Shown: piece after piece, positions 29,936 through 44,933 of the stretch
How the letters are laid out: each line of letters begins with the position of its first letter
How positions within the stretch are numbered: the stretch's first letter is position 1
NCBI GenBank assembly: GCA_965238005.1
Contig: OZ250165.1
Span: forward strand, 4,416,001 to 4,480,000
Direction: 5' to 3'
DNA length: 64,000 bases
DNA from: Longimicrobiales bacterium
GTDB taxonomy: Bacteria; Gemmatimonadota; Gemmatimonadetes; Longimicrobiales; Gaopeijiaceae
Position numbers and translations under genes: made by a program
The notes under the pieces: model-generated
What the model was told of the DNA's origin: nothing
Database searches by the model: none
The model's input: the letters and a program-made list of their open reading frames with translations, nothing else

Positions 29936-30344
29936 GTCCCACTTCCTCCAGAAGCTCTACAGCCCTTGTCCTGGACTGAGGTCGTTTCTGCCCGGCCATG
30001 TTCAGGGGGAGCTCTACGTTCTCGACAGCGCTCAGCGCATCGATTAGTCGGGCGTTCTGGAAGACGAATCCCATCTGCTTCAGACGAAAAGCCTGTAGGG
30101 CGCTGGCCTGCAACCCTTCCAGCTCGCTGTCGCAGATTCGGACGGAGCCCCGGGTCGGAGAGAGAATCCCAGCTAGGAGGCACAGGAGGGTCGTCTTGCC
30201 GCTTCCGCTGGGTCCGAGGATGAGGACGACTTCTCCGGCTTCGAGGGCAAGGTCCACCCCCTGGACAGCCTTCACCGTCTCCCCGGAGGGCCCCCGGAAC
30301 TCCTTCGTGAGCCCCTCCGCCTGAATGACCGGTCCCGGACTCAT
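29936..30344 (-). pseudogene. ABC transporter ATPase (LolD/MacB type), 3'-truncated by IS
   Basis: GPSGSGKTT and GFVFQ present; ends at LLEEVGL at the IS end, lacking the signature and Walker B. Confidence 0.85.
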
Positions 30345-31504
30345 GGCCGGAATACCTCCGCGGGTTGGATCTTCCGGAGTTGGTGGAGAGGAAGGAGCAC
30401 TGCCGATACACCCAGGACGAGGGTGAAGGCGACTACGGCGAGAATGATCCGGGGAGCCGGCCAGAAGGTGAGTTGTGGCACAAAGTAGAGAAACAGGGGC
30501 ACAGAAGCGGAAAAGGCGACACCGCCCAGGACCAACCCAGCCCACACGTTCAGAAGGGCCTGGCGGACAAGTAGTCCCTCCACCCACCCCTTGGGGGCTC
30601 CGACTGCCAGAAGGAGGGCGTAGTCCTCCCGCCGCTCGATGACCCCCACGTAAAGGAGCAGGGTGAGAGTGATCCCGCCGGCTAGGCTGCTGAAGAGGGC
30701 CGTGGCCCACAAGACGGGAACCAATCCGGTCTTGAGCTCCCCCCTGTTGTTCCTGGAGAACTGCTCCTGAGTAATGGGGTTCAGCTCGGGAATGCGCCTT
30801 TTGATGGCCGCCGCCAGCTCTGTCGGGGCGATGCCTTCTTCTCCATGCACGAGCCAGAAGCTGACGATGCCGGGAAAGCCGAGAAGGTCCTGTGCGTCTT
30901 CCAGCGTTGTGAAGCTGAACTGGGTCACGAGGGCGTTGGTCCCGGAGCTGAGCCCGACGACCCTGAACATCCGGTTCTGGACCCGGATGGATTGGCCGAC
31001 CTTCAGGTCATGGATCGCGGCGAAGGCACGATCCAGGATCATCTGACCGGCGGCCAGGTTGGGGGATCCCTCCACGACCTTTGGAAGAGTGGTAGGAAGC
31101 TCCGGGTCTACGCCCAACACGAAGAAGGTCGCGGATCTGCCGTCTTTCTCGGTCCTGGCGATGGCTCTGAGAAGGGGAGCGACCCTCGCCACCTCCGGCA
31201 TGGTGTCCAGCGCTTCGCCAATGGTATTGAGCATGTACGACGAACTTCGGATGAGGTTGTTCGAGTTGATGTGGGATACCCACACATCGACATCACGCGA
31301 GGCCACGTAGCCGTTGGCCTCCCGCTGCACCCCTTCCAAAACGGTAAAGAGAAAGAGGACCAGGGACACGGCTGCCCCCACGCCCATTGCGGTGACCACG
31401 AATCGAGCCCGATCTCAGGCAAGGAGGCGCCTGCTCAGCGGAACTTCACGCCCCATGAGCCTTGGCTTGGGCTCCTCCGGCGGATTGGCGTCTCTCGTGT
31501 TCAT
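30341..31504 (-). pseudogene. ABC permease (MacB/FtsX) with in-frame TGA near the N-terminus
   Basis: ATG 31504 is in frame with ORF 30341-31399; TGA at 31415-31417 within RRLLA*DRARF. Confidence 0.7.
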
Positions 31505-31507
31505 GCG

Positions 31508-32608
31508 TCAGAACGTGCCCATATCGACGAATGGGACCTCATCGCCTGTGAGTTTTGGCCCACTCTCCTTGTGACCGGCCAGGAAGATCTGGCTGGGGGA
31601 GACATGGCGCCACAGTCCCCGGAGGGCGCTCTTCAGTGGGTCCTCCCTGGAAAACGCAGCCTGAAGGACGTGGTATCCACTGCCGTGGTACCGGTCGAGG
31701 GCCGCGACCATCAGTGCCCGAAAAACTCCGGGATCACCCTCCTCTACCGCCGGCCACCGGAGAGTCAGCCGGCCCAGAGCGGCGCCCGGTGCGGGAAGGT
31801 GGGGTACGGAAGGGGAGAACAGGGATGCCGTCCGGAAGACCACTCGGAGGGGTAGGCTCTTGAGGGGGAACTTCAGGACTACGGTCTCCCGACTGTTTCC
31901 GTCGTCCGAGAAGGCGGCAACTCCCCGGAGCCGGCTTCCCTTTTCCGCCAGGAACCAGTTCTCCAGGCTCAACCCTTCGCCCGTTCGCCAGCTTCGAGTC
32001 AGGGTCTCCTCGTCCAGGTAGGGAGCCAGCATGCGTCCCGAGTACGCTCGGTGGATCAACTCCGCCACGGCCGGAGCGTCACTGGGCTCTGGGTGTCGAA
32101 TCCGCAAGTCGTCGGTACGCGGAAACCTCCGCAGGAGCGGGAGCGTGACGATGTCGAAGGGGAAGATCTTCAGGATAGGGAAAACAGGCCATCGCCAGGC
32201 AGCCACGATTCGCTCCGCCGGTCGATTCCCGCCGATTACAATTCCCGAGGCCACCGATGCCCTGGGAATGACGTATTCGCCAAATCCCTCGATGAGCATG
32301 CGCAGGAGCCCCCGGCCCCGGGCCTCGGGAAGCACCCTTCCGTCCGCGATGTACGCGTGCGTGGTCCAGTCCCTTTCCATCCATGACCGGTGAAAGCCCA
32401 CCATGCAGTAGCCGACAATCCGGCCCTTCTCGAACACGCCCAGGTGAATGTGGTCTTCGAATGCCTGCCTAGGCCATGCAAAGAAGTCCGGACCTCGCTC
32501 TAGGAGGTGAGTAAAGACCCCCTCGATGGGGCAGGCGCGGTTGATGGCGAGGAGCTCTTCGTTGAAGGATTCGTCCAGGAGACCGAATTCAAGGCCGCTC
32601 CCCGTCAT
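31508..32608 (-). CDS. Tandem GNAT N-acetyltransferase
   Basis: RVLPEARGRG acetyl-CoA motif; second GNAT-like repeat. Confidence 0.75.
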   Translation of the reverse strand: MTGSGLEFGLLDESFNEELLAINRACPIEGVFTHLLERGPDFFAWPRQAFEDHIHLGVFEKGRIVGYCMVGFHRSWMERDWTTHAYIADGRVLPEARGRGLLRMLIEGFGEYVIPRASVASGIVIGGNRPAERIVAAWRWPVFPILKIFPFDIVTLPLLRRFPRTDDLRIRHPEPSDAPAVAELIHRAYSGRMLAPYLDEETLTRSWRTGEGLSLENWFLAEKGSRLRGVAAFSDDGNSRETVVLKFPLKSLPLRVVFRTASLFSPSVPHLPAPGAALGRLTLRWPAVEEGDPGVFRALMVAALDRYHGSGYHVLQAAFSREDPLKSALRGLWRHVSPSQIFLAGHKESGPKLTGDEVPFVDMGTF

Positions 32609-33744
32609 TCTCCACCCTGGTTCACGCTGGCTGGAATCAGGTCCCAGATGGGGAGCATCTCGTCCTTTCGAAGCTCTCGACCGAGGTCATCATCCACCAG
32701 AATCGTGCCTTGCAAGTCCTCTGGAATGGCGCGGCGAACGTGCATCTGCCGAGTGAGGAGGCGGGCCTTCTTCTTCGAGGCCCGGACTACACCCCTCAAC
32801 ACTCGCTCAAACTCACTCTGGGAGAGCCAGTCGGGGAGGTTGGAGAGGTCAAACCCGTCGAATGGTCCCGGAACCGTCTCCCCCCCCAGAAAGGCCGTTA
32901 TGTCCGCCCTGATCGTCTCTAGGCCTCCGGCCCGGGTTCGTACTTCCGGAAAGCCCTCCTCAGACAGGAAGACGGGGACGGAGTCAGGGGAGATGACTCT
33001 CCCCAGCAGCAGCAGCTGCATCACGTGATTCTGTCGAATGGGCGTTCCGGTCATGCCCACCCTCATCACCCCGAAACAGTACTCTCCGAATGATTCCTGT
33101 CGCTCTCGGTGGGTCAGACTTTGAGGATCGGTGCCGAAAGCGGTGAAGAGGGTCGGATGGAAGACCACCTGAAAGGCTCGGCGAAGCCAGGAGGTCTCGA
33201 AGTAACGACGGAATACCTCTTCCTGCTCAGCGAGGGTCCGGCACTCGAACAGCGCCCGCGTACCAGCAGCGACGAAGGTTCGAATGACCCACCCGATGTG
33301 CCGCATATACCTCCCGAGACGAGCCCCGTGGATGGCGCCCCGCTTCACGAAGACCTGTTGAGAATCCCAGAACGCCAGCGACTCACTGTCCAGGGCCGAC
33401 CTCACCGTCCTATACCAACTCAGCCGCTGAGAGGCCTCGGCCGGGAGATAGCCCAGAAAGGAGATGGCGTCCTCCCTCAGAAGGCTCACCACCGTCGCCA
33501 GTTTCAGATGGACCAGGTGGAGCTGCTCGGGGCTGATGTCCAACGCCGTCACCTCATCGGCGCCCTGCGCCAGAAGGCCCAAAGGGACCTCGCCCCCACT
33601 GGCGATGGAGAGGAAGGCGCCACCCGGCAGGTCCAGGGCCCTGCCATCCAGGCGGTCGTTCTCCAAGGCGAACCCATAGCGGAAGAGCTGTGACATCGCC
33701 TGGTCCAGGTGGAGAGAGGGCGTGGGCGGCCGGGACGGGTTCAT
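32605..33744 (-). CDS. DUF3419/BtaA-like SAM-dependent transferase
   Basis: LSIASGG, ALDISPEQL.L..LK, LSNLPDWL. Confidence 0.75.
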   Translation of the reverse strand: MNPSRPPTPSLHLDQAMSQLFRYGFALENDRLDGRALDLPGGAFLSIASGGEVPLGLLAQGADEVTALDISPEQLHLVHLKLATVVSLLREDAISFLGYLPAEASQRLSWYRTVRSALDSESLAFWDSQQVFVKRGAIHGARLGRYMRHIGWVIRTFVAAGTRALFECRTLAEQEEVFRRYFETSWLRRAFQVVFHPTLFTAFGTDPQSLTHRERQESFGEYCFGVMRVGMTGTPIRQNHVMQLLLLGRVISPDSVPVFLSEEGFPEVRTRAGGLETIRADITAFLGGETVPGPFDGFDLSNLPDWLSQSEFERVLRGVVRASKKKARLLTRQMHVRRAIPEDLQGTILVDDDLGRELRKDEMLPIWDLIPASVNQGGE

Positions 33745-34182
33745 GATGAACCCCACTCCTGAGGGTAAAGTAGGAACCCGAATCGGTGGTGGAAAGGATC
33801 GACCTGCTTTGAGGGCCGTTGCGATGGACGGGGAGCACGGGGATGCGGGCGGACGTTGAAGGCGGTAGTCGAGCCGTTGACGCCCTTCTAAGCCACAAGG
33901 GCGCTCTGCCCTAAGGTCGCTCACACGGTAGCCTCGCCAGTTTCTGGCGGTGGAGAGAATGCGTCAGCAGTCTCAGCGATGTCCACTTCCCCGATCATTG
34001 TGAGTTCCTTATCGCCAGAGACGTGCAGCCGCCAGTGACAAACATCTTCGACACTCACGAGGGAGAGTCTCTCCACCCAAATGTTGTGTGGTCCTCCGAA
34101 TTCTTCGTGCTCGTCTTGGCATAGCTCTCAGCCCCCCCTTAAGAACGAAAAGACCCCCCAGATCAACGACGTGGAGGGCCAC

Positions 34183-34209
34183 GCGGAGCCGGTGGGATTC
34201 GAACCCACA
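34183..34209 (-). repeat. Duplicated 3' end of tRNA-Ser(CGA) (att-like)
   Basis: 27 bp GCGGAGCCGGTGGGATTCGAACCCACA, identical to 35264-35290. Confidence 0.9.
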
Positions 34210-34249
34210 AGTCCGTTAGGAGACAAATCTTCGACCGACTTGTCGTCTG

Positions 34250-34969
34250 CTACCCCGTCCCCGGCCGCGGCAGCCCCGGCGTCCCGAAGATGATCTCGGT
34301 GATCGCCTTGATGCTCCGATTGCCATACCGGAACGGCATGACGAGACGCAGGGGCGCTCCGTGTTGGGGATCGAGCGACTCCTCGTTCATCATCCAGACG
34401 AGCATGACCTGCGGATGCCGCAACTCCTCCACGGACTCGTCCACGTAGTGGCCGTCCGACCCGGTCAAGCGGCAGTAGTGGGCGCCCGGAACGAGGCCGA
34501 GCATGTCCGCGAAGTCGGTGAAGCGAACCCCGGTCCACTTCACGATACCGGTGGGCTCCGGTGCACCGCACTGCATGAGGAAGGTGTGCGAAACCCTCGT
34601 CAGGGGTTCGAGGTCGCTGAACCGCATCGTCCCACGCTTGGTGCCAAGCCCGCGCGTGTCCACCCGGATCGCCATCCTCGTGTAGTCGTACTCGATCTCG
34701 GGCGCCCTGCGGTCCGACGTCCTCCACATGAGGCGGCCCCGGATCGGGCCGGCGGCCGACTCGGGATGCTCGGGGGCCGAGCCGTCGGGGTTCAGCGGGA
34801 GGTCCACCGGGAACGTGGCGCGCGGATCGACGTCGATGAGTCGGTCCGGGAACTCCTGCTCCTGTCCGGCGACCTGAGCCGCCAACTCCTTAGGATCCAA
34901 GCCGCCGACCGACAGGCCAACGATTGCGGACCCGGATACGGCGATGGCGTCGCGTCTCGAGATCGTCAT
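34250..34969 (-). CDS. Tat-exported molybdopterin-dependent oxidoreductase (sulfite oxidase/MsrP family)
   Basis: SRRDAI Tat motif, QC, WTGVRF, HGAPLRL..P.RYG..SIK. Confidence 0.85.
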   Translation of the reverse strand: MTISRRDAIAVSGSAIVGLSVGGLDPKELAAQVAGQEQEFPDRLIDVDPRATFPVDLPLNPDGSAPEHPESAAGPIRGRLMWRTSDRRAPEIEYDYTRMAIRVDTRGLGTKRGTMRFSDLEPLTRVSHTFLMQCGAPEPTGIVKWTGVRFTDFADMLGLVPGAHYCRLTGSDGHYVDESVEELRHPQVMLVWMMNEESLDPQHGAPLRLVMPFRYGNRSIKAITEIIFGTPGLPRPGTG

Positions 34970-35264
34970 GCGGGACTGCTCCTCCGAGGGGACAGGCGCG
35001 GGCGTGCGCGCAATCAGAATACTCCGGCACGCTCGGCGGGGATAGTCCGACCTCACGGACTTTTCATGGAGATCTGATGGGGGGCGCGTAGCGGGTCCGG
35101 ATCATCACCCCCCCCCCCTTTCCGGGGAGGGTCCGCTAAGACCCTGCAAGGTCCGGTACGCGGGTAACGAATCGGGTAACGCGACAGGCAAAGTTCGGGT
35201 CTACAAAAAAGGTGGTCACCGAATCGGGAATGCCCGATGTGCCGTAAGTCGCTGTGCTATAAAG

Positions 35265-35347
35265 CGGAGCCGGTGGGATTCGAACCCACACACCCTCACG
35301 GGCGCCGGTTTTCGAGACCGGTGCAATACCAATTATGCGACGGCTCC
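35265..35347 (-). tRNA. tRNA-Ser(CGA)
   Basis: Cloverleaf, CCGGT-CT-CGA-AA-ACCGG, long variable arm. Confidence 0.92.
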
Positions 35348-35358
35348 AAACGTCGCAA

Positions 35359-35381
35359 TCAGTCGGGGCGCCCGGATTTGA
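35359..35381 (-). repeat. Duplicated 3' end of tRNA-Pro(CGG)
   Basis: 23 bp TCAGTCGGGGCGCCCGGATTTGA, identical to 35507-35529. Confidence 0.85.
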
Positions 35382-35510
35382 GCTGCGGTCGCCCTCGGCG
35401 ATCCTCGCTCGTCTCGGCGGTCAGCTCCTAGACCGCAGAGCGGATCACACCAAGTCGCCTCGGCTGAACCTCCCGCTCAAACCCGGAAAAACCCAATCTG
35501 TTTTCCTCAG

Positions 35511-35584
35511 TCGGGGCGCCCGGATTTGAACCGGGGACCTCTGCGTCCCGAACGCAGCGCTCTACCGGACTGAGCCACGCCCCG
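35511..35584 (-). tRNA. tRNA-Pro(CGG)
   Basis: CTGCG-TT-CGG-GA-CGCAG anticodon arm. Confidence 0.95.
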
Positions 35585-35715
35585 AATTCTACCATTAAGC
35601 GCCCAGAAACCGCGTTCCTACGGGACGCGTGGGCCATCCTACTCCTAGCGGAAAGGGGTGGGAGTGTACTCGAACCGAATCACACAACGCCCGCGGTGGC
35701 CTCGTGTACTCCAAG

Positions 35716-35800
35716 CGGACGGGGTGGGATTCGAACCCACGTGGGCTATCAACCCACACGATTTCCAATCGTGCGCCTTAAGCCGCTCGGCCACCCGTCC
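35716..35800 (-). tRNA. tRNA-Ser(GGA)
   Basis: CACGA-TT-GGA-AA-TCGTG. Confidence 0.95.
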
Positions 35801-35846
35801 AGTTGTCAGTGAAGAATCCCACGTCCAACGCATTCAAGTACCTAAG

Positions 35847-35930
35847 CGGAGGGAGTGGGATTCGAACCCACGCGGACTTGCGTCCAACGCCTTAGCAGGG
35901 CGCCGCCTTAAGCCACTCGGCCATCCCTCC
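35847..35930 (-). tRNA. tRNA-Ser(GCT)
   Basis: GCGCC-CT-GCT-AA-GGCGT. Confidence 0.95.
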
Positions 35931-35937
35931 CAACAAG

Positions 35938-36010
35938 TTGCCCCTCTAGGGCTCGAACCTAGACTCTCCGGAACCAGAATCCGGCGTGTTGCCAATTACA
36001 CCAAGGGGCA
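35938..36010 (-). tRNA. tRNA-Gln(CTG)
   Basis: CCGGA-TT-CTG-GT-TCCGG. Confidence 0.95.
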
Positions 36011-36016
36011 TCTGAG

Positions 36017-36090
36017 AGCCACCTGTCGGAATCGAACCGACGACCCCGTCATTACGAGTGACGTGCTCTACCAGACTGAGCTAAGGTGGC
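36017..36090 (-). tRNA. tRNA-Thr(CGT)
   Basis: CGTCA-CT-CGT-AA-TGACG. Confidence 0.95.
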
Positions 36091-36096
36091 AAGCAG

Positions 36097-36169
36097 TGGA
36101 GCCGAGGGGAATCGAACCCCTGACCTCAGCATTGCGAACGCTGCGCTCTCCCAACTGAGCTACGGCCCC
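36097..36169 (-). tRNA. tRNA-Ala(CGC)
   Basis: CAGCG-TT-CGC-AA-TGCTG. Confidence 0.95.
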
Positions 36170-36213
36170 CGACCATATCGGCCACTCGGCGTGTCCGCCA
36201 AGGGCCGCCAAAA

Positions 36214-36287
36214 TGGGCGCGAGAGGACTCGAACCTCTGACCTCTACGATGTCAACGTAGCGCTCTAACCAACTGAGCTACGCGCCC
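36214..36287 (-). tRNA. tRNA-Val(GAC)
   Basis: CTACG-TT-GAC-AT-CGTAG. Confidence 0.95.
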
Positions 36288-36297
36288 GGTCCCCTCC

Positions 36298-36335
36298 TTG
36301 TACTCCAACTTTGTACTCCAACTTTGTACTCCAAC
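36298..36335. repeat. 3 x 13-bp tandem repeat (T)TTGTACTCCAAC
   Basis: Read directly between tRNA-Val and tRNA-Arg. Confidence 0.9.
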
Positions 36336-36409
36336 ACGCCCGGAGGGACTCGAACCCCCGGCCTCCTGATCCGTAGTCAGGCGCTCTAATCCAACTGAGC
36401 TACGGGCGC
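36335..36409 (-). tRNA. tRNA-Arg(ACG)
   Basis: CCTGA-CT-ACG-GA-TCAGG. Confidence 0.95.
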
Positions 36410-36580
36410 AAACAAACAAACTGCAATACAGACGGTCTCGAAGACCACTCCTTTTCATCAGGCGACTTTGGTGCGGCGGTAGGAGGGCAAGGCGACCCGA
36501 CTGAGGCGTACACTCGTACGCCGCAGGGAGGGGAGACCGCAGTCCCGACACCGCGCTGCGCCAAAAGCGCCCGTGAAAAG

Positions 36581-36664
36581 TGCCCACGACAGGACTCGAA
36601 CCTGTACGCCGTTTCCGACACTGGTCCCTCAAACCAGCCTGTCTACCAATTCCAGCACGTGGGC
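36581..36664 (-). tRNA. tRNA-Leu(GAG)
   Basis: CTGGT-TT-GAG-GG-ACCAG, variable arm. Confidence 0.95.
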
Positions 36665-36696
36665 GCTCTGTCGGACCGAACCGAGCCGAGCAGAAA

Positions 36697-36781
36697 TGCT
36701 CGGGGAGGGACTCGAACCCTCACGGGGTTAACCCCCACAGGGTCCTGAACCCTGCGCGTCTACCAATTCCGCCACCCGAGC
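36697..36781 (-). tRNA. tRNA-Leu(CAG)
   Basis: CAGGG-TT-CAG-GA-CCCTG. Confidence 0.95.
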
Positions 36782-36794
36782 CCGATCTGCACAG

Positions 36795-36867
<73 letters not shown>

Positions 36868-36906
36868 CGCACAATCAACCTGTGAGATGTCAAACAGCGT
36901 CTCCAG

Positions 36907-36981
36907 CGGGGCTGACGGGACTTGAACCCGCGACCTCCGGTGTGACAGACCGGCACTCTAACCAAGCTGAGCTACAGCCCC
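36907..36981 (-). tRNA. tRNA-Asp(GTC)
   Basis: CCGGT-CT-GTC-AC-ACCGG. Confidence 0.95.
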
Positions 36982-37025
36982 AAACGTCTACCGCGTCCGG
37001 ACCCCTGGTCCGGTGTCCTGCACCA

Positions 37026-37097
37026 TGCCCCCACGGGGAATCGAACCCCGATCTCCACCTTGAAAGAGTGGTGTCCTAGCCGCTAGACGATGGGGGC
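37026..37097 (-). tRNA. tRNA-Glu(TTC)
   Basis: CCACT-CT-TTC-AA-GGTGG. Confidence 0.95.
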
Positions 37098-37113
37098 GCA
37101 CTCCCCTGCCCAA

Positions 37114-37186
37114 CAGGCCCGGAGGGACTCGAACCCCCAACCCCCGGTTTTGGAGACCGGTGCTCTACCAGTTGAGCTACGGACCT
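37114..37186 (-). tRNA. tRNA-Trp(CCA)
   Basis: CCGGT-CT-CCA-AA-ACCGG. Confidence 0.95.
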
Positions 37187-37224
37187 CTGTTGTCCCGCGA
37201 CCGCAGAGGCGATCGGTGCATCAG

Positions 37225-37297
37225 TGGCCAGGGGCGGAATCGAACCACCGACACCGCGATTTTCAGTCGCGTGCTCTACCAACTGAGCTACCTGGCC
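37225..37297 (-). tRNA. tRNA-Phe(GAA)
   Basis: CGCGA-CT-GAA-AA-TCGCG. Confidence 0.95.
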
Positions 37298-37300
37298 GAC

Positions 37301-37336
37301 AAAAAAACCGCCCGGGCCTCTCGGCTACAGACGGTC
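37301..37336 (-). terminator. Intrinsic terminator (attenuator 3:4 hairpin) 3 nt upstream of tRNA-Phe
   Basis: Minus strand ACCGTCTG-TA-GCC-GAGA-GGC-C-CGGGCGGT followed by TTTTTT. Confidence 0.75.
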
Positions 37337-37362
37337 TGACGAAGGGTGCGCGCTCGAAGTTT

Positions 37363-37455
37363 CTAGCGGCTCCCCTCGACCGCCCACGGTCGCAGGCTAG
37401 ACCACGTATCGGCCATCGTCCAACCCCGGGCCTGCTTGGCATCCGTCTGGAACAT
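37363..37455 (-). CDS. Putative attenuator leader peptide (30 aa, Trp12/Trp18/Trp24)
   Basis: SD AGGGAG 7 nt before ATG; MFQTDAKQARGWTMADTWSSLRPWAVEGSR*; overlaps alternative hairpins. Confidence 0.6.
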   Translation of the reverse strand: MFQTDAKQARGWTMADTWSSLRPWAVEGSR

Positions 37456-37524
37456 CGACCGACTCCCTGAAAGCTGAATGGCCAGCACGTGGAAACGCCG
37501 CCCGAAGGCGGCGTTGTCAGCAAG

Positions 37525-37598
<74 letters not shown>

Positions 37599-37610
37599 CT
37601 GTAAAGCAAA

Positions 37611-37639
37611 AAGATATTGGAGATCGCGGAAAGGTTCAA
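37611..37639 (-). promoter_or_regulatory. Sigma70-type promoter of the tRNA array
   Basis: TTGAAC-17 bp-TATCTT, 12 nt upstream of tRNA-fMet. Confidence 0.7.
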
Positions 37640-37708
37640 CCCCGATCCTCGTACCTCAGAAGTGCTAGTTTAACCCACTCGCCGAACAGCACCTCGAGAG
37701 GTGAGACG

Positions 37709-38302
37709 ATGATGATGCGAGGTTGGAGCTGGGCAATCGTGGGCGCTGCGCTCGCCCTCCCCATGGCCGCATGTGGGGCACCCGATGATGGCGCGACCGC
37801 ACAGGACGACATGGGCGGTCGGGACACCGGCCTCAAGAGCTGGCACGAGGAGCAGGTGGCCGACTTCGAGACCATGCGGGACAAGTTCCTCGCCCTGGCC
37901 GAGGCCTTCCCCGAGGAGACCTGGGACTGGCGTCCCATGGAAGGCGTCCGCTCGGTCCGAGACGTCATGGCGCTCATGGTCGCCGAGGGATACCTCTTCC
38001 CCAGGCTTTGGGGCGCCACGGCTCCGGAGGGCGTGGCCTCGGGCTTCGGGGCTGAGATCGCCCGCGTGGCCGCGCTGTCCAAGAGCGAGATCATGGCCGA
38101 GATGGAGAAAGCGTTCGAGCACTTGCTCGCTTCGTGCCGGGACATGACCGAGGCCGAGCAGAACGCCGAGGCCAACTGGTTCGATCGGAAGGTGACGGCC
38201 ACCGCGGCCATGGGCCTCGCGGCCGGAGACATGCACGAGCACTTGGGGCAGTCCATCGCCTACGCGCGCACGAATCACATCGTGCCGCCCTGGAGTCGGT
38301 AG
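37709..38302 (+). CDS. DinB-family lipoprotein
   Basis: Lipobox MAAC; WRPMEGVRS, HEHLGQSIAYAR....PPWS. Confidence 0.85.
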   Translation: MMMRGWSWAIVGAALALPMAACGAPDDGATAQDDMGGRDTGLKSWHEEQVADFETMRDKFLALAEAFPEETWDWRPMEGVRSVRDVMALMVAEGYLFPRLWGATAPEGVASGFGAEIARVAALSKSEIMAEMEKAFEHLLASCRDMTEAEQNAEANWFDRKVTATAAMGLAAGDMHEHLGQSIAYARTNHIVPPWSR

Positions 38303-38317
38303 GGGGCGCTTCGCGAG

Positions 38318-39001
38318 CTAGAACGGCCGTCCTAAGTCGGCCTGTACCCGGACCCTCGTGATCTGGGTCGCGTCGAGGAACGTGCGCGAGCCCAGCGTAC
38401 ATCCCGTCGCCATGAGGTTGCCCTGGGCGGTGCACGGCACGTGTATCAAGCCCAGGGAGTGACCCAGCTCGTGGGCGAGGATGCGCGCCATGCCTCCGTC
38501 GATGTCGCGCCCTCCCAGGGGATCGATCTCTGTGGAGACCACCACCTTCTCGCTCGGCAGGTACACGCCTCCCAATCCGCCCCCTAAATCCCGGATCATG
38601 AAGACGTTCCAGATGTCGGGCCGCAGGTTCTCCGGTGAGAGCACGGACGTGATCAATCCGAGCGGGCTCACGGTGGGATCCATGAGAGCGCGGCGGAACA
38701 GAGACTCGTTCCGCGCATCCTCGCGGACGATGCTCTCCAGGCCCCAGATGATGCCGGCCTGCGCCCAAGTCTCGTTCACCGCGGTCACGAGCTCGGTGAC
38801 TTCCTCGTCGCTCAGGCGAACGTTCAACGCGTCCAGCTCGTCGGACTGAACCAAGTGCAGCCGGACGGCGAGCTCGTTGGCCCCCGGCTCGCTGGTTTCG
38901 GGCCCGATCGGCTCATCGGTGCCGTCCGAGCAAGCACCCAGGATCAGTGCGACTGCCATGAGGACCGACAGCCGGTTCCTCGGATTGGCTCTATTGGTCA
39001 C
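38318..39001 (-). CDS. Metzincin-type zinc metalloprotease lipoprotein
   Basis: Lipobox LGAC; AHELGHSLGLIH and NLM Met-turn. Confidence 0.8.
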   Translation of the reverse strand: MTNRANPRNRLSVLMAVALILGACSDGTDEPIGPETSEPGANELAVRLHLVQSDELDALNVRLSDEEVTELVTAVNETWAQAGIIWGLESIVREDARNESLFRRALMDPTVSPLGLITSVLSPENLRPDIWNVFMIRDLGGGLGGVYLPSEKVVVSTEIDPLGGRDIDGGMARILAHELGHSLGLIHVPCTAQGNLMATGCTLGSRTFLDATQITRVRVQADLGRPF

Positions 39002-39172
39002 GTATTCCCCGGTTGCCGAGTAATTCAGCTATGGTGGGTATAACCGTCGGGCCTCGGCACCAGTTCCAGCGAATCGAGATCGGGATCCCCCAGGGGCGAC
39101 CACGGCACCTGCCGGGAGTAGCTCGGCCCTGGTGTTGAGGGGCGTAGGACCGAGCTTACCTTTCCTCTTCCA

Positions 39173-39246
39173 CGGGACGTGGCGCAGCTCGGTAGCGCAC
39201 CTGAATGGGGTTCAGGGGGTCGCCGGTTCGAATCCGGCCGTCCCGA
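39173..39246 (+). tRNA. tRNA-Pro(GGG), probable integration site
   Basis: CCTGA-AT-GGG-GT-TCAGG; integrase gene immediately downstream. Confidence 0.95.
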
Positions 39247-39261
39247 CTGTGGAGGTGATTG

Positions 39262-39295
39262 CCCCGCTTGATGTTACAGCATCAGGCGGGGTTTT
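39262..39295 (+). terminator. Terminator after tRNA-Pro(GGG)
   Basis: CCCCGCTTGATG-ttacag-CATCAGGCGGGG-TTTT. Confidence 0.7.
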
Positions 39296-40509
39296 GCGTT
39301 TGTCCCAAAAGTGGGACTTGTGCCTTTTCGTGTGCCTTTTCGTGCGCCATTCTGGCACTCTTTCCGGCGTTCCAACGCCCCTCGGAGTTTGTCTTCGTCG
39401 GGTCGTTGGTAGCACTTGATGACGGTCTCGATGTCCCGCCAGCCACCCAACTGGCACACCACACTGAGGGGCTCCTCATGGAGATCGGTGGCGAACTTCC
39501 TCCGGAGCGAGTGCCATCCCCGCCCTGGTTTCCGCTCGAGCCCGGCCCTCACCTCCGCCCGCCTCCACCAGTTCCTGAGCAGATAGCGCCCCACGGGCCT
39601 CGCAGGGTCCTTGGGCGCCGGGAGCACCGGGGAGTCACCGATGCCAGGGCCATGCACTCGAGCCTCCTCAAACGCGACCCTGGCGTCCTCCGTCATCGGT
39701 GTGACGTGGGCATAGCCCGTCTTCTCAGACTCAGCACGCCAGTGGATGCTCGCCCCTTCGAAGTCGAGGTCGGACCACCGGAGCACCCGGATGGCGCCGA
39801 TCCTGTGGCCTGTTTCGTGCGCCAGGATCAGCGCAACACGGAACCTCCAGTCGACCTCACCCGCGACGCCGAGCAAGACCGAATACTCATGAGCAGTCAG
39901 GGTAATACGCCTCGGGTTCTTCTCTTTCGGCAGGCGGTACCCCTTGAGGGGGTCCCGCTCAAGCAGCACTCCACCGTGGCCGTCCCCTGCCATGGTTGCC
40001 CACGTGAGCACCGACCTCAGGTAACTCAGATCCTTCTGGACGGTGCGGGTGGCCACCGGCTCCCACTGCCCGGGCCGTGGTCCAATACGACCCGATCCAC
40101 GGTCCCGGATGAATCCATCCCAGTCCCTCCTGTTCAGCGTCGTTGCTCGACGATCCGGACCGAAGTACCGGACAAACATGTCCGCCGCCTTGCGGTCGTA
40201 TTGCTGATGACGCTCCCCGTTTCTCGGGGTCACCTCACCTAGGTATATGTCAAACAGCTCTTGGAGCGTGAGCTCCGGCGGAGCCTCCTCGATCACGGAC
40301 TCCGCTCTTGCGAGCTTGGCCGCAACCTCGTCAGCCTTACGCTTCGCCTTCTCGCGGTCGGAGTGACCCAGGGCGATGCGCTTCCGCTCACCGTCGTCCC
40401 GGAACTCGAGGGTCAGTGATCCTCCCGGCCGCTCGAAGATCCGAACACGGTTCCTGCCCTTCTCGCCGGACAGGTAGCTCCATCCCTTCCTTGTGCGTCT
40501 GGCCATCAT
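39274..40509 (-). CDS. Tyrosine integrase
   Basis: TGHRIG (R), EKTG (K), HSLRR, GGWR, CY catalytic set. Confidence 0.93.
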   Translation of the reverse strand: MMARRTRKGWSYLSGEKGRNRVRIFERPGGSLTLEFRDDGERKRIALGHSDREKAKRKADEVAAKLARAESVIEEAPPELTLQELFDIYLGEVTPRNGERHQQYDRKAADMFVRYFGPDRRATTLNRRDWDGFIRDRGSGRIGPRPGQWEPVATRTVQKDLSYLRSVLTWATMAGDGHGGVLLERDPLKGYRLPKEKNPRRITLTAHEYSVLLGVAGEVDWRFRVALILAHETGHRIGAIRVLRWSDLDFEGASIHWRAESEKTGYAHVTPMTEDARVAFEEARVHGPGIGDSPVLPAPKDPARPVGRYLLRNWWRRAEVRAGLERKPGRGWHSLRRKFATDLHEEPLSVVCQLGGWRDIETVIKCYQRPDEDKLRGALERRKECQNGARKGTRKGTSPTFGTNAKPRLML

Positions 40510-40886
40510 TGGTCTCCTGCTCTGATGGCAGATTGCACGACCTCCGTCCGTGAAATCTGGAGGTTCTGGGGGTGCCGTACCACCCCTGCCCTGACCGGCA
40601 GGTCTCCTCGGGCGATCCGGGGAGCTCCAGGCCTACCAGCGTTCGCGATCCTTCCCTCTCGGACGAGGCGCCCGAGGTGGTCTGTAGAGTACCCGCTGAG
40701 GTCGGAGGCCTCGGTGAGGGTCAGGGGGGCGTCGGCTCCCTCGCGGAGGGCTTTCTCGAGGGCGTCAGCGCATTTCTCGTAGGCGAGGGCCACGGAGGTC
40801 TCCTCGTGCTCTCGAAAGAGCCTACTCCTATCGCGCCACTCCTCAGGGAGGTCAGCGGGGAGCACGGGGCCGTTGGCGGACTTCAC
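40506..40886 (-). CDS. Excisionase-like MerR/HTH_17 DNA-binding protein
   Basis: LTLTEASDLSGYSTDHLGRLVREGRI..GAPRI; overlaps the int start. Confidence 0.7.
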   Translation of the reverse strand: MKSANGPVLPADLPEEWRDRSRLFREHEETSVALAYEKCADALEKALREGADAPLTLTEASDLSGYSTDHLGRLVREGRIANAGRPGAPRIARGDLPVRAGVVRHPQNLQISRTEVVQSAIRAGDQ

Positions 40887-43294
40887 GACCCCACCTCCTC
40901 GTCCTCCGTCGCCGACTCATCCACTAGATCAAAGAGGTCGGCGACGTTCTCGACGCGACCGCCGTGTCCGGCCCGCCACCCGGGAATAGCGTAGTACCTG
41001 TGCCGGTTCCCAGTGCGCCTGTTCTCGATGGCTCCACGGTGGATCAAATCACGAACAGCTTCCTGTTTGGCACCGTTACGACCCTCGACACGGTCGCGGA
41101 TGTGTTGCGCAGCACAGCCCGGCTCGCTCTCAATGAACTGGAACACACGTGCGAGAAGGGAGAGCTCTCTTGGGACGTCCACGAGCTCGACCACGGCGCT
41201 CGCAAAGAGAGTTGGTTCACTGTCGTCTGTGGTCGTCAGCGACAGACCCGTAAGCCCCTTCAGACGGAAGCCGAGCGGCAGAGGTTTGTGGCCGCCGTCC
41301 CGCATCTTCCGTGTCTTGAGGGTCATGGGGTTGCCGCTATCGAGAGCTTCCCTCGTGCCTTTGATCACATAGGAGAAGTCCAGGCCCTGTTCCCAGGCCG
41401 AAGCCCCCCGTAGGCGGTCGCTGTCGCCGTATCCCACGTGGTGCGTGAAAAGAGACGTGCAGTCAGTTTCGGCTGCAAACCGTGAGAGTAAGCCAGTGAT
41501 GGCGTTGGCAGTGTCGTTGTCATTCTCCGACTGCTCTGCCCCTAACGTTTTTCCGAGCGTGTCGATGATGACGAGGCCAGCGCCGGTCTGATTGATTGTG
41601 TTGATCAATCCGGTTTCAAAAACCGGGTCGTCGAACCGAGGCGGGTACTCGCTGATTATGACACGGCCCCGAAGCACCTCCTCCATCTCGGCGAGCGTAG
41701 CACTCTCGCGTAGGTACCCGTGTTCAACCAACCAGCCGAAAATCCGCTTTGGGAAGTCGCGATTTCCCTCGGCGATTAGAAAAATGACGGGCTGCTGCGT
41801 CGTCTCGGACCCGAGCCAGGGCCGCCCGAAGGCGACCGAGCATCCCAGGTCGATCACCAGCCAGGTCTTCCCAAGAGAGAAATCTGAGACGATGGCGCCA
41901 ACGCCAGCAGCGGGGATGCGCCCGTCGACGAGGTACCGATCTTCCAATCGGATGTCCTTTATATTTAGGGCTCGGAGAACGGGCACCCCGTCAGCATCGC
42001 GCACGAAGGCGGCCCGCCCATTGGATGGCTTGACCGAGTTCAGTACATCCTGCGCCCCCTGCCTGCCCAGAAGGTTGTCCAACTTGCGGGTCAAGGCGGC
42101 TTCGGCGAGCGTGCGCTCCCGATGATCCAACGTGGGGAGCATCGCCAGCACCCGGTCACTCGTGTCCAGTGCTGTCGCCAGTGAGTTCGGACCGAGCTGC
42201 CCAATCAGCTTAAGCGCGGTGGACAGGGCGTCAGAGCAGCATGCAGGGCCCTCCGTAGCCTCTGGAGCGTCCTGGTCAGCCTCAAACAGCCCTTGAATCT
42301 CCTCCACCCTCTCTTGGGAGAGTTCCTCCTTGAGGGTGTCCTCCCCAACCTTGAAGCCCTGCCCCCGTAGCCACTTCCACCCGATCTCGAATGGGGGTTT
42401 GAGACTATCCCATGTCCTCTCCACGAGATCAGGATCGTTCTCGCCCCCCTTCCAGCGGCCGGAAAAGTCCTGAAACATCTCAAGCCCTGCGATCACGTCG
42501 TCCTGGGCCGCCGCCCGGATCGCGATTCCAAACCTGATCCACTCGTCGCGGGTCTCGTACGTGTTCGGGATCCGGGCAATGAGCTCCTCGAGCTCCTTGA
42601 TCGAGGGGGCCTTGAGGTCCTCCTGCGGAGGCGCCTCCTTCACTCTCCCGTCCCCCACGATCTCGACGTCGAAGCCCTCGTCGCGAAGAAGGGTCGCGAG
42701 GTGCTCGAAGAAAGCCTGAGCGCTCACCCTGCTCACCCACGGGAGGGTCTCCGGGTCTACCTCCCAGAGCGGGGCGCCCTCCCATCCATAGTCGACCCCG
42801 GAGGGGTGACGGCCGTGGATGAGGTACTGGCGGCCCTTGCCGAGCCACTCGATCTCTGCCGATTCGTCTCCCTTCCGGACCTTGAGGACCATCTTGGGGA
42901 AGGGCTCCTTCGTCCGATAGACGAGGAGGCCGCGAGGGTGGCGCGAGGTCCGGTAGGGCGACGGCCCGAAGGAGGACTCGGCCTCCTTGCGGACCAACTG
43001 CGTCAGCTTCTCGAAGTCAGAGTCGATGTCCAGAGCTGGGAAGCGGTTACCGAGGAGACCAATGTTCGCCCTCCACTCGTCGATGGTGGCGGGGTCGATG
43101 CTCTCCTTCGTGAAATTGTAGCCCCGCCACCCGTGGGGTCCCATCTCACCAGGACATTTCCCGCGCTGGCCGGGGTCTATCTTAGAGTACGGTGAAAGGT
43201 CACCGTCCGGTGGGATGACGGAAACGAGCTCTGTGTAGCCTCTGTTGTAGAGTTTGGTCGCGACGTCGTTGTCGCGGCGTGTGTTGTGAGACAT
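40883..43294 (-). CDS. Prim-Pol + PriCT-2 + AAA_25 (RecA-like) primase-helicase with C-terminal wHTH
   Basis: NIGLL..ALDID, HPSG..Y.W; RDEWIRFGIAI; LGKT, IIDTL, END, HHVG, RLRGASA. Confidence 0.85.
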   Translation of the reverse strand: MSHNTRRDNDVATKLYNRGYTELVSVIPPDGDLSPYSKIDPGQRGKCPGEMGPHGWRGYNFTKESIDPATIDEWRANIGLLGNRFPALDIDSDFEKLTQLVRKEAESSFGPSPYRTSRHPRGLLVYRTKEPFPKMVLKVRKGDESAEIEWLGKGRQYLIHGRHPSGVDYGWEGAPLWEVDPETLPWVSRVSAQAFFEHLATLLRDEGFDVEIVGDGRVKEAPPQEDLKAPSIKELEELIARIPNTYETRDEWIRFGIAIRAAAQDDVIAGLEMFQDFSGRWKGGENDPDLVERTWDSLKPPFEIGWKWLRGQGFKVGEDTLKEELSQERVEEIQGLFEADQDAPEATEGPACCSDALSTALKLIGQLGPNSLATALDTSDRVLAMLPTLDHRERTLAEAALTRKLDNLLGRQGAQDVLNSVKPSNGRAAFVRDADGVPVLRALNIKDIRLEDRYLVDGRIPAAGVGAIVSDFSLGKTWLVIDLGCSVAFGRPWLGSETTQQPVIFLIAEGNRDFPKRIFGWLVEHGYLRESATLAEMEEVLRGRVIISEYPPRFDDPVFETGLINTINQTGAGLVIIDTLGKTLGAEQSENDNDTANAITGLLSRFAAETDCTSLFTHHVGYGDSDRLRGASAWEQGLDFSYVIKGTREALDSGNPMTLKTRKMRDGGHKPLPLGFRLKGLTGLSLTTTDDSEPTLFASAVVELVDVPRELSLLARVFQFIESEPGCAAQHIRDRVEGRNGAKQEAVRDLIHRGAIENRRTGNRHRYYAIPGWRAGHGGRVENVADLFDLVDESATEDEEVGS

Positions 43295-43473
43295 CTCATA
43301 GTTCCTCCACTACCTACCCCTGGCATCGTGCCGATGCAGGGGCTCGGCTCTCTCTAACCTCATGCGTCGGTCATCCGACGCAGACCTCATTGCCCGAGGG
43401 CGGGGCTTGCCTCACGCACCACGGCGGGGGCAACCTGTCCTGGACTTTAATTATGAAGAGTCGGGGCCGATGC

Positions 43474-44418: not shown

Positions 44419-44933
44419 ACCCGTGCCGGTCAGGGAGGGATCGGCACTCGCCCCGGTAGGGTGTGCCCGTAAGGGCACCCCCGGGCGAGTAGGCCAGGCC
44501 TTGGAGGGACGGACAGATGTCACACCTTGAGTGGAGAGACTGGGTCGGACCTGCGACAGAGCCGTGTCTCAGCGATATTCAGTGCGGCGTCGCGGAGCAT
44601 CTGACTTGCTGATCGTCAATTGATCTCAGGCATTTCTTTCGGAACATGAATCGACAAGAACTGGATACAATCGTCACGGGCGGTGAGTCAGAGCAAGTCG
44701 AGTTCAAGCGCACTACCGGCCAAAGGACGGAAGGAGCAAGAGCCGTCTGCGGAATGCTGAACGGATCAGGTGGCTTCGTCTTTTGGGGTGTAGCCGACGA
44801 CGGGCAGATTAGTGGCCAAGAGATCGGATCAGGGACGATCGAAGGGCTGGTTGCCGCTCTTCGGCAGCTGGAGCCACCTGTGCTTATGCAGCCAGAGCTC
44901 GTCCCTATAGGCAACAATCGATCAGTGATAGCC

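Follow-up and report, generated by a model that had tools for sequence, protein, structure and literature searches.

A trpL-type ribosome-mediated (leader-peptide) transcription attenuator is likely to operate within the core tRNA operon of a Longimicrobiales bacterium and its relatives in the Gemmatimonadota, where it would gate 16 tRNA genes, that of tRNA-Trp included. An earlier note, made on the window (the whole stretch of 64,000 nt of DNA that was analysed), had proposed a trpL-type architecture inside a tRNA operon, and the anatomy of the locus, the conservation of the reading frame and the pairing of the helices all support that proposal. The cell probably sets the output of the 16 tRNA genes by the speed at which the ribosome reads a leader Trp codon. 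We infer from the sequence that the attenuator regulates these genes, that it does so by controlling read-through, and in which direction. Statistics on the window alone leave doubt, which the sequence comparison with relatives removes.

Organization and promoter of the tRNA operon

All features of the attenuator lie on the minus strand, and the spacer between tRNA-fMet and tRNA-Phe is 226 nt long. The features of the locus are as follows.

37639-37634 and 37616-37611, minus strand: promoter-like site, TTGAAC and TATCTT with a 17-nt spacer, read from the sequence
37598-37524, minus strand: tRNA-Met(CAT), initiator-like, first gene of the operon (ARAGORN and Rfam)
37513-37496, minus strand: hairpin 1, CGCCGCC-TTCG-GGCGGCG
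37495-37487, minus strand: box TTTCCACGT, following hairpin 1
37468-37463, minus strand: Shine-Dalgarno (SD) sequence AGGGAG, 7 nt upstream of the ATG at 37455
37455-37363, minus strand: leader ORF, 30 codons and TAG
37401-37387, minus strand: segment 1 (UCUAGCCUGCGACCG), codons 19-23, directly after Trp18
37386-37362, minus strand: segment 2 (UGGGCGGUCGAGGGGAGCCGCUAGA), including the stop codon; partner of segment 1 or 3
37354-37328, minus strand: segment 3 (AGCGCGCACCCUUCGUCAGACCGUCUG); partner of segment 2 (antiterminator) or 4 (terminator)
37335-37307, minus strand: intrinsic terminator, ACCGUCUG..GCC-GAGA-GGC..CGGGCGGU
37307-37301, minus strand: U7 run, ending 3 nt before tRNA-Phe
37297-35264, minus strand: 16 elongator tRNA genes past the terminator, in an order also found in relatives
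37297-37224, minus strand: tRNA-Phe
37186-37114, minus strand: tRNA-Trp, second gene past the terminator

The tRNA-Met(CAT) gene, which we take to encode an initiator from its GGG/CCC anticodon stem and its unpaired positions 1:72 under the known identity rules, precedes tRNA-Phe in 24 of 30 loci. The order of the array is Phe, Trp, Glu, Asp, Ala, Leu, Leu, Arg, Val, Ala, Thr, Gln, Ser, Ser, Pro, Ser; thus, as the earlier note had counted, tRNA-Phe and tRNA-Trp are followed by 14 further tRNA genes on the minus strand, the last of which reaches 35264.

The promoter-like site lies 12 nt upstream of tRNA-fMet in the window. It scored 8/12 in a generic sigma-70 scan and was missed there. The pattern TTGA[CA]-N16-19-TAnnnT was present upstream of tRNA-fMet in all of the 64 testable loci, at a distance of 9-18 nt (9-13 nt in 63 of them). 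An independent promoter driving tRNA-Phe, a possibility that the earlier note had raised, was looked for as the promoter-like pattern in 123 fMet-Phe spacers and was found in none. With a promoter before tRNA-fMet and none in the spacers, the locus from tRNA-fMet to the end of the array reads as one transcription unit.

Each of five near-complete relatives contained a single full-length match to tRNA-Trp (99-100% identity), within the operon. Since tRNA-Trp is the second gene past the terminator and the sole full-length match in these relatives, the tRNA that is sensed would also be a target of the control. The genome of the window has a second tRNA-Trp gene, within a foreign-looking array; a leader was looked for upstream of this second tRNA array, and none was seen.

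The leader ORF and its conservation

The SD sequence, the 30-codon ORF and the Trp codons 12, 18 and 24 described in the earlier note are all present in the window. The translation is MFQTDAKQARGWTMADTWSSLRPWAVEGSR*, and the TGG codons lie at 37422-37420 (codon 12), 37404-37402 (codon 18) and 37386-37384 (codon 24). At the genome frequency of Trp (1.53%), the probability of at least three Trp in 29 codons is 0.0097, a modest value for the window alone.

For comparison, leaders were defined by D-[TSA]-W with a stop codon 9-14 codons on, a definition by which the central Trp is fixed by selection in the set; 72 of 123 unique spacers contained such an ORF. The stop codon followed the central Trp at 12 codons in 35 leaders and at 13 codons in 31 (66/72). 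The stop codon was TAG in 54, TAA in 13 and TGA in 5, and the Asp codon was GAT in 40 and GAC in 32. A Trp was found at -6 from the central Trp in 63/72 leaders and a Ser at +1 in 69/72. The conservation of SD and start that was expected from the earlier proposal was seen in 65/72 leaders, in the form of an SD-like 4-mer 4-16 nt ahead of an in-frame start.

The conservation of the three Trp codons was uneven. Trp18 was kept throughout, and the central Trp was also found in the variant leaders L050, L059, L053, L077 and L082; the exceptions were L139, which has no Trp codon, and L049 and L066, which have Arg in its place. Trp12 was kept in the 63 leaders with Trp at -6, and Trp24 was conserved among close relatives only.

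The indels in the ORF part of alignment A1 were mostly multiples of 3, the main gap blocks being 3 columns each, with single-base gaps in L012 and L055. For 17 sequences, pN/pS was 0.23 in codons -13..+2 and 1.0 in codons +2..+9, where the RNA helices lie, and all four synonymous codons were in use at Ala, Arg and Gly. The retention of SD/start, Trp and stop across genera, together with the synonymous variation and the exchange of stop codons, indicates that the leader ORF is a real coding sequence. Judged by its substitutions, the C-terminal half of the leader evolves as RNA and not as protein.

Competing helices and the terminator

The three competing helices that the earlier note had drawn are present in the window. 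The minimum free energy (MFE) fold of the 226-nt spacer (-105.8 kcal/mol, z = -2.75, with 0/200 shuffles as good) includes the terminator together with the inner hairpin of 1:2 and a further hairpin that encloses the stop codon. When the first 33 nt were masked and segment 4 was not yet made, the 2:3 pairing was the MFE structure. The U-tract was confirmed as U7, with its end 3 nt before tRNA-Phe. The terminator hairpin of the window is absent from a simple terminator scan because the loop rule of the scan excludes it.

Compensatory changes, which had been anticipated, were found in all three helices in 55 sequences, the structure under test being taken from one member of the alignment. The 1:2 helix was 86.9% paired, with 4 pairs showing changes on both sides and a score of 0.248 vs 0.173. 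The 2:3 helix was 81.7% paired, with 7 such pairs and a score of 0.224 vs 0.143, and the 3:4 helix was 80.1% paired, also with 7 such pairs and a score of 0.130 vs 0.084. For each helix, the score was reached by 0/500 shuffles, and slid controls for the three helices were 21-55% paired. Concerted changes were seen in segments 1, 2 and 3 of L068 and in segments 2, 3 and 4 of the window's own group. Unbiased consensus folds by RNAalifold contained only 5-6 pairs, with small covariation terms; the complete alignment yielded the 3:4 core, and the alignment trimmed of segment 4 yielded the 2:3 core. The U-run was kept in 71/72 leaders, and the mean energy of the terminator hairpin was -21.4 kcal/mol.

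We also folded the leaders with a ribosome mask at equilibrium (n = 71). In the full-length RNA, the terminator formed in 43 leaders when the RNA was free, in 47 with the ribosome at Trp and in 68 with the ribosome at the stop codon. In the RNA made before segment 4, segment 3 was paired with the ORF in 65, 58 and 45 leaders, respectively. Thus, the masked folding proposed in the earlier note gave the 2:3 pairing in the window before segment 4 and failed to separate the states across the 71 leaders, and the model therefore needs kinetics.

Hairpin 1 was kept across the order, in leaderless spacers too, and the box after it was conserved, with variants among the spacers. A pairing of the box, TTTCC(C)ACGT, with the Thr-Trp codons ACGTGG was considered as a required helix and rejected: it showed no covariation, as the box was unchanged in the inspected leaders that have ACC for ACG (10/72).

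Of 24 sequencing runs, 18 were recorded as RNA and 2 more were only guessed to be so, and these contained only 5-9% of the sampled words. In four of these metatranscriptome runs, the coverage lay almost only on tRNA bodies and came from other organisms, and no contig in these four runs spanned the whole spacer. A 157-nt contig, X4 (depth 3.2, 4 differences), covered 37388-37544, from the end of tRNA-fMet to the leader, and could be DNA.

Proposed mechanism

Transcription would start at the conserved promoter before tRNA-fMet and pass through tRNA-fMet and hairpin 1 into the short translated leader. A ribosome pausing with Trp18 in its A site would cover segment 1 and leave segment 2 free for segment 3; the 2:3 pairing would preclude the terminator, and RNA polymerase would enter tRNA-Phe, tRNA-Trp and the 14 further tRNA genes. 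When Trp-tRNA is plentiful, the ribosome would reach the stop codon 12-13 codons on and cover segment 2, and the 3:4 terminator would form. If translation is absent, the predicted helices are 1:2 and 3:4, and transcription would stop. The outcome would be a feedback in which the operon, with its conserved tRNA-Trp gene, is expressed more strongly when UGG is decoded slowly, and the physiological signal may be the amount of tRNA-Trp, its charging, or both. That the ribosome stalls at the Trp codon, how strongly and in which direction the operon responds, and what signal it answers to are predictions of this model.

The earlier note had assigned the masking of segment 1 to stalling at either Trp12 or Trp18. 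The position fits for Trp18, which abuts segment 1 in the window and also in the columns of the alignment; Trp12 lies 18 nt too far upstream for masking it. Neither Trp12 nor Trp24 plays the part that had been assumed for it.

Some observations stand against the attenuator model. The Trp at -6 sits at too great a distance upstream to act in antitermination, plain codon sensing neither needs nor predicts conservation of the peptide at the amino-acid level, and a shortage of tryptophan is not cured by extra tRNA. The second tRNA-Trp gene of the genome, the leaders that lack the central Trp, the leaderless relatives and the folds with a ribosome mask weigh in the same direction.

A wider reading could fall either way: that the lineage gauges its own decoding capacity, the reading speed of a Trp codon setting a core operon of 16 elongator tRNAs, the only conserved tRNA-Trp gene among them, through a leader whose peptide was tuned by selection and a homeostatic feedback encoded in the chromosome.

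Distribution among relatives

Covariance model R1 had matches in 74 of the 151 genomes of the family, in 62 of its 110 good-quality genomes and in 45 of its 81 genera, nearly always one per genome and in the fMet-Phe spacer. In the phylum sample, 7 of 17 family genomes had R1 matches. Three matches among 134 genomes from outside the family (L200-L202) were false, being generic terminators or coding DNA far from any tRNA, and a second match in genome G069 was a plain gene-end terminator. Four pattern matches titled Chrysiogenales, Chrysiogenia or Aminicenantes were rejected, as they had no tRNA gene.

About half of the family, and a Longimicrobium-like family, have the same operon without the leader, and some of the leaderless spacers retain a terminator-like hairpin before tRNA-Phe. 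Since the operon is kept without the leader in these relatives, cells would be able to do without control by the attenuator, and the hairpins that stand at this site must allow some read-through.

Relation to known systems

The locus resembles trpL (Rfam Trp_leader) in its SD and short ORF with Trp codons, in the placement of a Trp before segment 1, in the mutually exclusive 1:2, 2:3 and 3:4 pairings, in the terminator with its U-tract immediately ahead of the genes under control, and in the position of the stop codon, at which a ribosome that terminates would lie over segment 2. Unlike in trpL, the targets are 16 tRNA genes and not biosynthetic enzymes, and a tRNA gene of the same operon precedes the attenuator. 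Nor are the Trp codons in tandem: they are spaced six codons apart, and only one of them is well placed. The amino-acid sequence of the peptide is also conserved. Attenuators of the trpL class act on genes for the synthesis or the charging of the amino acid that they sense; the 16 tRNA genes here do neither, and the mechanism class still applies. A search of 37298-37523 against Rfam at E<=1 gave no match, Trp_leader and other leader families included. A leader of the trp operon itself was sought for comparison; the only TrpE-like gene has approximately 50 nt upstream before a divergent gene, leaving no room for a leader.

Classical attenuation of aminoacyl-tRNA synthetase genes is surveyed in, e.g., PMC1262725. 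Like the pheST leader pheM, the present leader would control a component of translation through the reading of a cognate codon. The targets of the synthetase attenuators are protein enzymes, whereas here the target would be the tRNA itself and 15 others, so that the sensed molecule and the product would be the same RNA species.

T-boxes are known to control tRNA genes in some Firmicutes. A T-box riboswitch likewise couples the state of a specific tRNA to the choice between terminator and antiterminator before translation-related genes; it makes direct contact with the tRNA, with no ORF involved, whereas the ORF here is conserved as coding. The T-box model had no match at E<=1 over positions 30000-45000 of the window.

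The TnaC arrest peptide has a Trp, an Asp four residues later, a Pro eight residues past the Asp, and then the stop. The present leader shares with TnaC, of the tna operon, the short length, a conserved Trp with Asp four residues later (W-x3-D in 63/72 leaders) and a fixed distance to the stop codon. It differs in having no Pro at Asp+8, in the position of the stop codon, which is 14-15 codons past the Asp in 66/72 leaders and 11-16 overall, and in its intrinsic terminator, that of TnaC being Rho-dependent.

In the textbook view, bacterial tRNA genes are controlled at the promoter level, by growth rate and the stringent response. To our knowledge, the published cases of leader-peptide attenuation all concern genes of amino-acid biosynthesis or of synthetases, and our literature search turned up none in which tRNA genes were the target. 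If the proposed attenuator is real, it would provide direct feedback from decoding speed to tRNA synthesis, and it bears on the way in which the level of each tRNA is adjusted to the need for it. It is also suited to testing, being small, single-copy, located in an essential operon and provided with one invariant codon to mutate; approximately 100 natural variants are at hand, with natural loss variants in sister genera as controls. A second question that it raises is why the peptide is conserved upstream of the sensor codon.

Alternative explanations

One alternative would be a nascent-peptide switch, in which A-R-G-W-T-M-A-D-T-W-S-S acts in the ribosome tunnel on the same RNA switch, either by a chain-dependent pause at the Trp codon or by sensing a small molecule (e.g. 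free tryptophan, as in TnaC); the signal would then not be, or not solely be, the supply of charged tRNA-Trp. We consider this unlikely. The constraint on the amino acids upstream of and around the Trp next to a C-terminal half free of it (the pN/pS values of 0.23 and 1.0) speaks for such a switch, as does the spacing of Trp -6 and Asp -2, since this W-x3-D is conserved in TnaC. The constancy of the 12-13 codons from the central Trp to the stop codon would fit as well, but the RNA helices also demand a fixed distance. The Pro eight residues past the Asp is missing, and most of the leader peptides end in Arg; stalling close to the stop codon would have the same outcome as normal termination and so would bring no obvious added control; and the short leaders give only 12 residues by the time the Trp codon is read. 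The leader peptide was also searched against Pfam and NCBIfam, where it matched no family and, in particular, no arrest-peptide family.

It is also quite improbable that there is no switch, and that the leader is the gene of a small protein, or is released as an RNA or peptide with an independent function, and simply ends at a constitutive leaky terminator, the hairpins serving processing or setting the ratio of initiator to elongator tRNA. The conserved peptide sequence would agree with this, as would the leaderless fMet-Phe spacers that have hairpin 1 and sometimes a terminator-like hairpin, and peTrpL, reported in 10.1101/606483 as a leader peptide with its own function, is a precedent. However, such an arrangement has no role for the supported 2:3 pairing, which overlaps both 1:2 and 3:4; the fixed place of the stop codon within the helices and the evolution of the C-terminal half as RNA and not as protein also speak against it. 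That the ORF arose by chance, in a tRNA spacer rich in GC and in structure, is barely credible. The Trp enrichment in the window alone (P ~0.01) and the rarity of stop codons at 65% GC would allow for this, but it is contradicted by the conservation of frame, start, Trp codon and stop over 45 genera and by variation of the coding type, namely synonymous changes, the exchange of three stop codons, and ORF-part indels that are mostly multiples of 3. The ribosome-mediated attenuator remains our preferred reading.

Leader-like sequences and codon choice

The genome of the window contains 27 six-frame matches to W-x3-D-[TSA]-W, the leader itself among them. The two most leader-like of these (1178801 and 926282) were examined as paralogues of the leader and discarded; they lie inside longer reading frames and have no attenuator features.

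The array tRNAs read 24 of the 29 codons of the window leader, compared with 57.2% genome-wide (P = 0.0035). A leader with codons matched to the array was thus considered, and we treat it as no more than a weak hint: all synonymous codons occur where Arg and Gly are conserved, some of them not decoded by the array, and the RNA helices likewise bias codon choice. The rare codons GAT and TCT are used in the window leader.

Anatomy of the operon and its first spacer

Judged from the comparisons described here, the spacer between tRNA-fMet and tRNA-Phe holds a real, conserved, translated leader, a three-helix switch and a terminator inside a core tRNA operon, and this element is very probably regulatory. 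The genes behind the spacer are, in order, Phe, Trp, Glu, Asp, Ala, Leu, Leu, Arg, Val, Ala, Thr, Gln, Ser, Ser, Pro and Ser.

Features of the operon and spacer
37598-35264, minus strand: tRNA operon; first gene, an initiator-like tRNA-Met(CAT)
37523-37298, minus strand: spacer from tRNA-fMet to tRNA-Phe, 226 nt
First item in the spacer, minus strand: hairpin 1, CGCCGCC-TTCG-GGCGGCG, with a short U-run and the box TTTCCACGT attached
7 nt 5′ of ATG 37455, minus strand: candidate SD, AGGGAG
Start at ATG 37455, minus strand: leader ORF of 30 codons, MFQTDAKQARGWTMADTWSSLRPWAVEGSR-stop; Trp at codons 12, 18 and 24
U7 end 3 nt from tRNA-Phe, minus strand: predicted terminator, hairpin plus U7

The SD, the 30-codon ORF with its three Trp codons, the pairing segments and the U-tract hairpin of the earlier note were all found in the window as described. 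The fold energy of the spacer was better than that of all shuffled sequences (200/200; z = -2.75), and its minimum free energy structure combined the inner hairpin of 1:2, a stem-loop whose loop carries the stop codon, and the terminator. No Rfam match was obtained within the spacer at E<=1. At the Trp frequency of this genome, three Trp in 29 codons have P ~0.01; the case against chance from the window alone is thus modest, and it is the relatives' sequences that settle the non-chance origin.

Elsewhere in the array, GTTGGAGTACAA(A/G) is repeated three times in tandem in the spacer from tRNA-Arg to tRNA-Val (36300-36336, minus strand), and GGAGTAC-like words also occur in other spacers, near 35700-35712 and 35640-35650. 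Between tRNA-Pro and tRNA-Ser(cga), at ~35370-35395 (minus strand), there is a second copy of the tRNA-Pro(cgg) 3′ end (35510-35530), which looks like what an old integration event would leave behind.

Conservation of the leader ORF

Codons are numbered from the central Trp (Trp18 in the window). Among 72 leaders, which were picked by D-x-W and a nearby stop so that those features are circular, (i) Trp was present at -6 in 63 and Ser at +1 in 69, (ii) the Asp codon was GAT in 40 and GAC in 32, (iii) the stop lay exactly 12 or 13 codons past Trp in 66 and was TAG in 54, TAA in 13 and TGA in 5, and (iv) an SD-like 4-mer preceded an in-frame start in 65. In the leader alignment, gaps in the ORF part were mostly multiples of three, and those after the stop were of any length. 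A subgroup of 17 leaders shared the block D-A-x-Q-A-R-G-W-T-M-A-D-T-W-S-S, with all four synonymous codons found at each of Ala, Arg and Gly. In this subgroup pN/pS was 0.23 over codons -13 to +2, with the three selection codons excluded, and 1.0 over codons +2 to +9, the region of helices 1 and 2; the 5′ half of the ORF thus evolves as protein and the 3′ half as RNA structure. These patterns mark the ORF as genuinely coding. The peptide matched no family in Pfam or NCBIfam.

Three mutually exclusive helices

The three exclusive helices put forward earlier were 80-87% paired over 55 sequences, with changes on both sides of pairs.

Helices derived from one leader (L076) and counted on the 55-sequence alignment; the structure comes from an alignment member and the sequences are related
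Helix 1:2 (protector): 86.9% of cells paired; 4 pairs changed on both sides; score 0.248, shuffled mean 0.173
Helix 2:3 (antiterminator): 81.7% of cells paired; 7 pairs changed on both sides; score 0.224, shuffled mean 0.143
Helix 3:4 (terminator): 80.1% of cells paired; 7 pairs changed on both sides; score 0.130, shuffled mean 0.084

For each helix, neither the score nor the percentage paired was reached by any of 500 shuffles, and sliding the partners by 1-3 columns as a control gave only 21-55% pairing. Concerted changes were seen in one leader (L068) across segment 1 (GTCCGC), segment 2 (GCGGAC) and segment 3 (CCCGTCCGC), and in the window's own group across segments 2, 3 and 4 (GGTC / GACC..., with an A-U closing pair). 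Unbiased RNAalifold recovered 6 terminator pairs from the full alignment, and 5 pairs of 2:3 once segment 4 was removed; this consensus is thin, yet the two results show segment 3 in precisely the two alternative pairings required of an attenuator.

Promoter-like site and transcription unit

The pattern TTGA[CA]-N16-19-TAnnnT ended 9-18 nt before tRNA-fMet (9-13 nt in 63/64) at all 64 leader loci with enough flank. A separate tRNA-Phe promoter would have spoken against the proposal of the earlier note; no promoter-like site of this type was present in any of the 123 spacers collected, so tRNA-Phe appears to have no promoter of this type of its own, and the leader is most likely translated from the primary transcript, which begins with tRNA-fMet. 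Hairpin 1 is present after tRNA-fMet across the whole order, even in family members with spacers of 51-74 nt, and carries U5-6 in the Longimicrobium-like family. Since the sole tRNA-Phe gene of the window's genome is situated behind hairpin 1, hairpins in this position must let some polymerase through.

Hairpin 1 and the box after it occupy 37487-37514 (minus strand), and the box is conserved in the family as TTTCC(C)ACGT. Its pairing with the Thr-Trp codons ACGTGG, its reverse complement, was considered and rejected as a required helix, as no co-variation was found.

Distribution among relatives

The gene order fMet-Phe-Trp-Glu-Asp-Ala-Leu-Leu-Arg-Val-Ala-Thr-Gln-Ser is common to the order, and the matching public contigs were titled as Gemmatimonadota MAGs, with the labels Longimicrobiales, Longimicrobiaceae or Gemmatimonadales. 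The 123 unique fMet-Phe spacers came from searches biased to likeness with the query, so that their breakdown is not a prevalence: 72 contained D-[TSA]-W in an ORF that ends 9-14 codons further on, 33 were of <=80 nt with a hairpin only, and 18 were of other types, some with different Trp-containing leaders. One short spacer (L017, genome G025) supports no claim.

Prevalence was taken from R1, a covariance model whose source alignment spanned Trp(-6) to tRNA-Phe in 55 leaders. R1 matched 74 of 151 sampled family genomes, 62 of the 110 of good quality, and 45 of 81 genera, nearly always once per genome and in the fMet-Phe spacer; about half of the family keeps the operon without the element. 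The expected conservation of the ORF in relatives was thus borne out in 72 of the 123 spacers, with stop exchange and synonymous change, and by R1 across those 45 genera. In a phylum-wide sample of 151 genomes, R1 matched 7 of 17 family genomes; just 3 matches fell among the 134 others, all far from any tRNA gene, and were discarded. A second match in one genome (G069) was rejected as an ordinary gene-end terminator.

Variant leaders occupy the same site in genus g79 (L053, L077, L082), with three conserved Trp in W-A-E-V-S-W-G-T-S-T-N-P-W. Those of genus g38 (L049, L066), from small low-GC genomes, have two upstream Trp and Arg at the central position, and the short ones of genus g74 (L050, L059) keep the central Trp alone. 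The L139 leader has no Trp. Three family members (L209 in G071, L210 in G117, L061 in G045) carry a terminator-like hairpin and U-run before tRNA-Phe, with no recognisable leader ORF in the spacer; the terminator may have been in place before the leader arose, or these members may have lost their leader. A MAG labelled Solirubrobacterales (L140) has a full Gemmatimonadota-type leader between tRNA-fMet and tRNA-Phe, probably a binning or labelling issue.

Proposed mechanism and comparison with known systems

The element would belong to the leader-peptide attenuators, four of whose five testable defining features were found in its sequence. The fifth calls for regulated genes that synthesise or charge the sensed amino acid; here they are tRNA genes instead, and this is the novelty. 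The element is not a member of the Rfam leader families (no spacer match at E<=1) or of the T-box family. The W-x3-D spacing recalls TnaC, but the Pro of TnaC has no counterpart and the distances differ.

The logic would be that of trpL: the anatomy is shown, and we infer the stall as well as how strongly, and in which direction, the system responds. With its A site on the invariant Trp codon, a ribosome would cover the next 12-15 nt, the 5′ arm of helix 1:2, which the codon abuts whether the form is short (TGG AGC CCG...) or long (TGG TCT AGC...). Segment 2 would then pair with segment 3 ahead of segment 4 synthesis, allowing read-through; a ribosome at the stop, 12-13 codons on and inside the stop-codon hairpin, would cover segment 2 and favour the terminator. 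Equilibrium folding with masked ribosome footprints did not separate these states and so gave the model no computational confirmation; a choice made kinetically would lead to such an outcome.

Behind the terminator tRNA-Trp comes second, and five near-complete relatives each had one full-length 99-100% match to it, in the operon, besides weaker matches of <=82%, which points to feedback on tRNA-Trp and 15 co-transcribed tRNAs. Since more tRNA is no cure for tryptophan lack, what is usefully sensed is more probably how the supply of tRNA compares with the demand from ribosomes.

Some observations do not fit. The earlier note had a stall at Trp12 or Trp18 masking segment 1; the placement suits Trp18, whereas the conserved Trp12 (-6) lies 18 nt upstream of the sensor codon, out of reach. 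The central Trp is Arg in L049 and L066, the L139 leader lacks Trp altogether, the element is missing from about half of the family, and the genome has another tRNA-Trp in its second array. Codon sensing would not require the peptide ahead of the sensor to be conserved in its amino acids, as it is; this suggests tuning of the pause by the nascent chain, or an additional function of the peptide. There is also a weak hint that the leader codons are matched to the tRNA array, which decodes 24/29 of them against 57.2% genome-wide (P = 0.0035), with the rare codons GAT and TCT adjoining Trp in the window leader; however, the conserved Arg and Gly take every synonymous codon, and composition is skewed by the pairing segments.

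Full-text literature searches turned up no description of tRNA genes under leader-peptide attenuation; in the passages pairing 'tRNA operon' with attenuation terms, PMC4448311 and PMC3082878 are not precedents.

A second array of 17 tRNAs in the same genome, outside the window (G000:C1:1035994-1037821), includes another tRNA-Trp(cca), and no leader was seen upstream of it. Its odd members are Ile(aat), one tRNA without clear identity and, near 1035810-1035930, a tRNA-like gene interrupted by a long insert; this array looks acquired or foreign.
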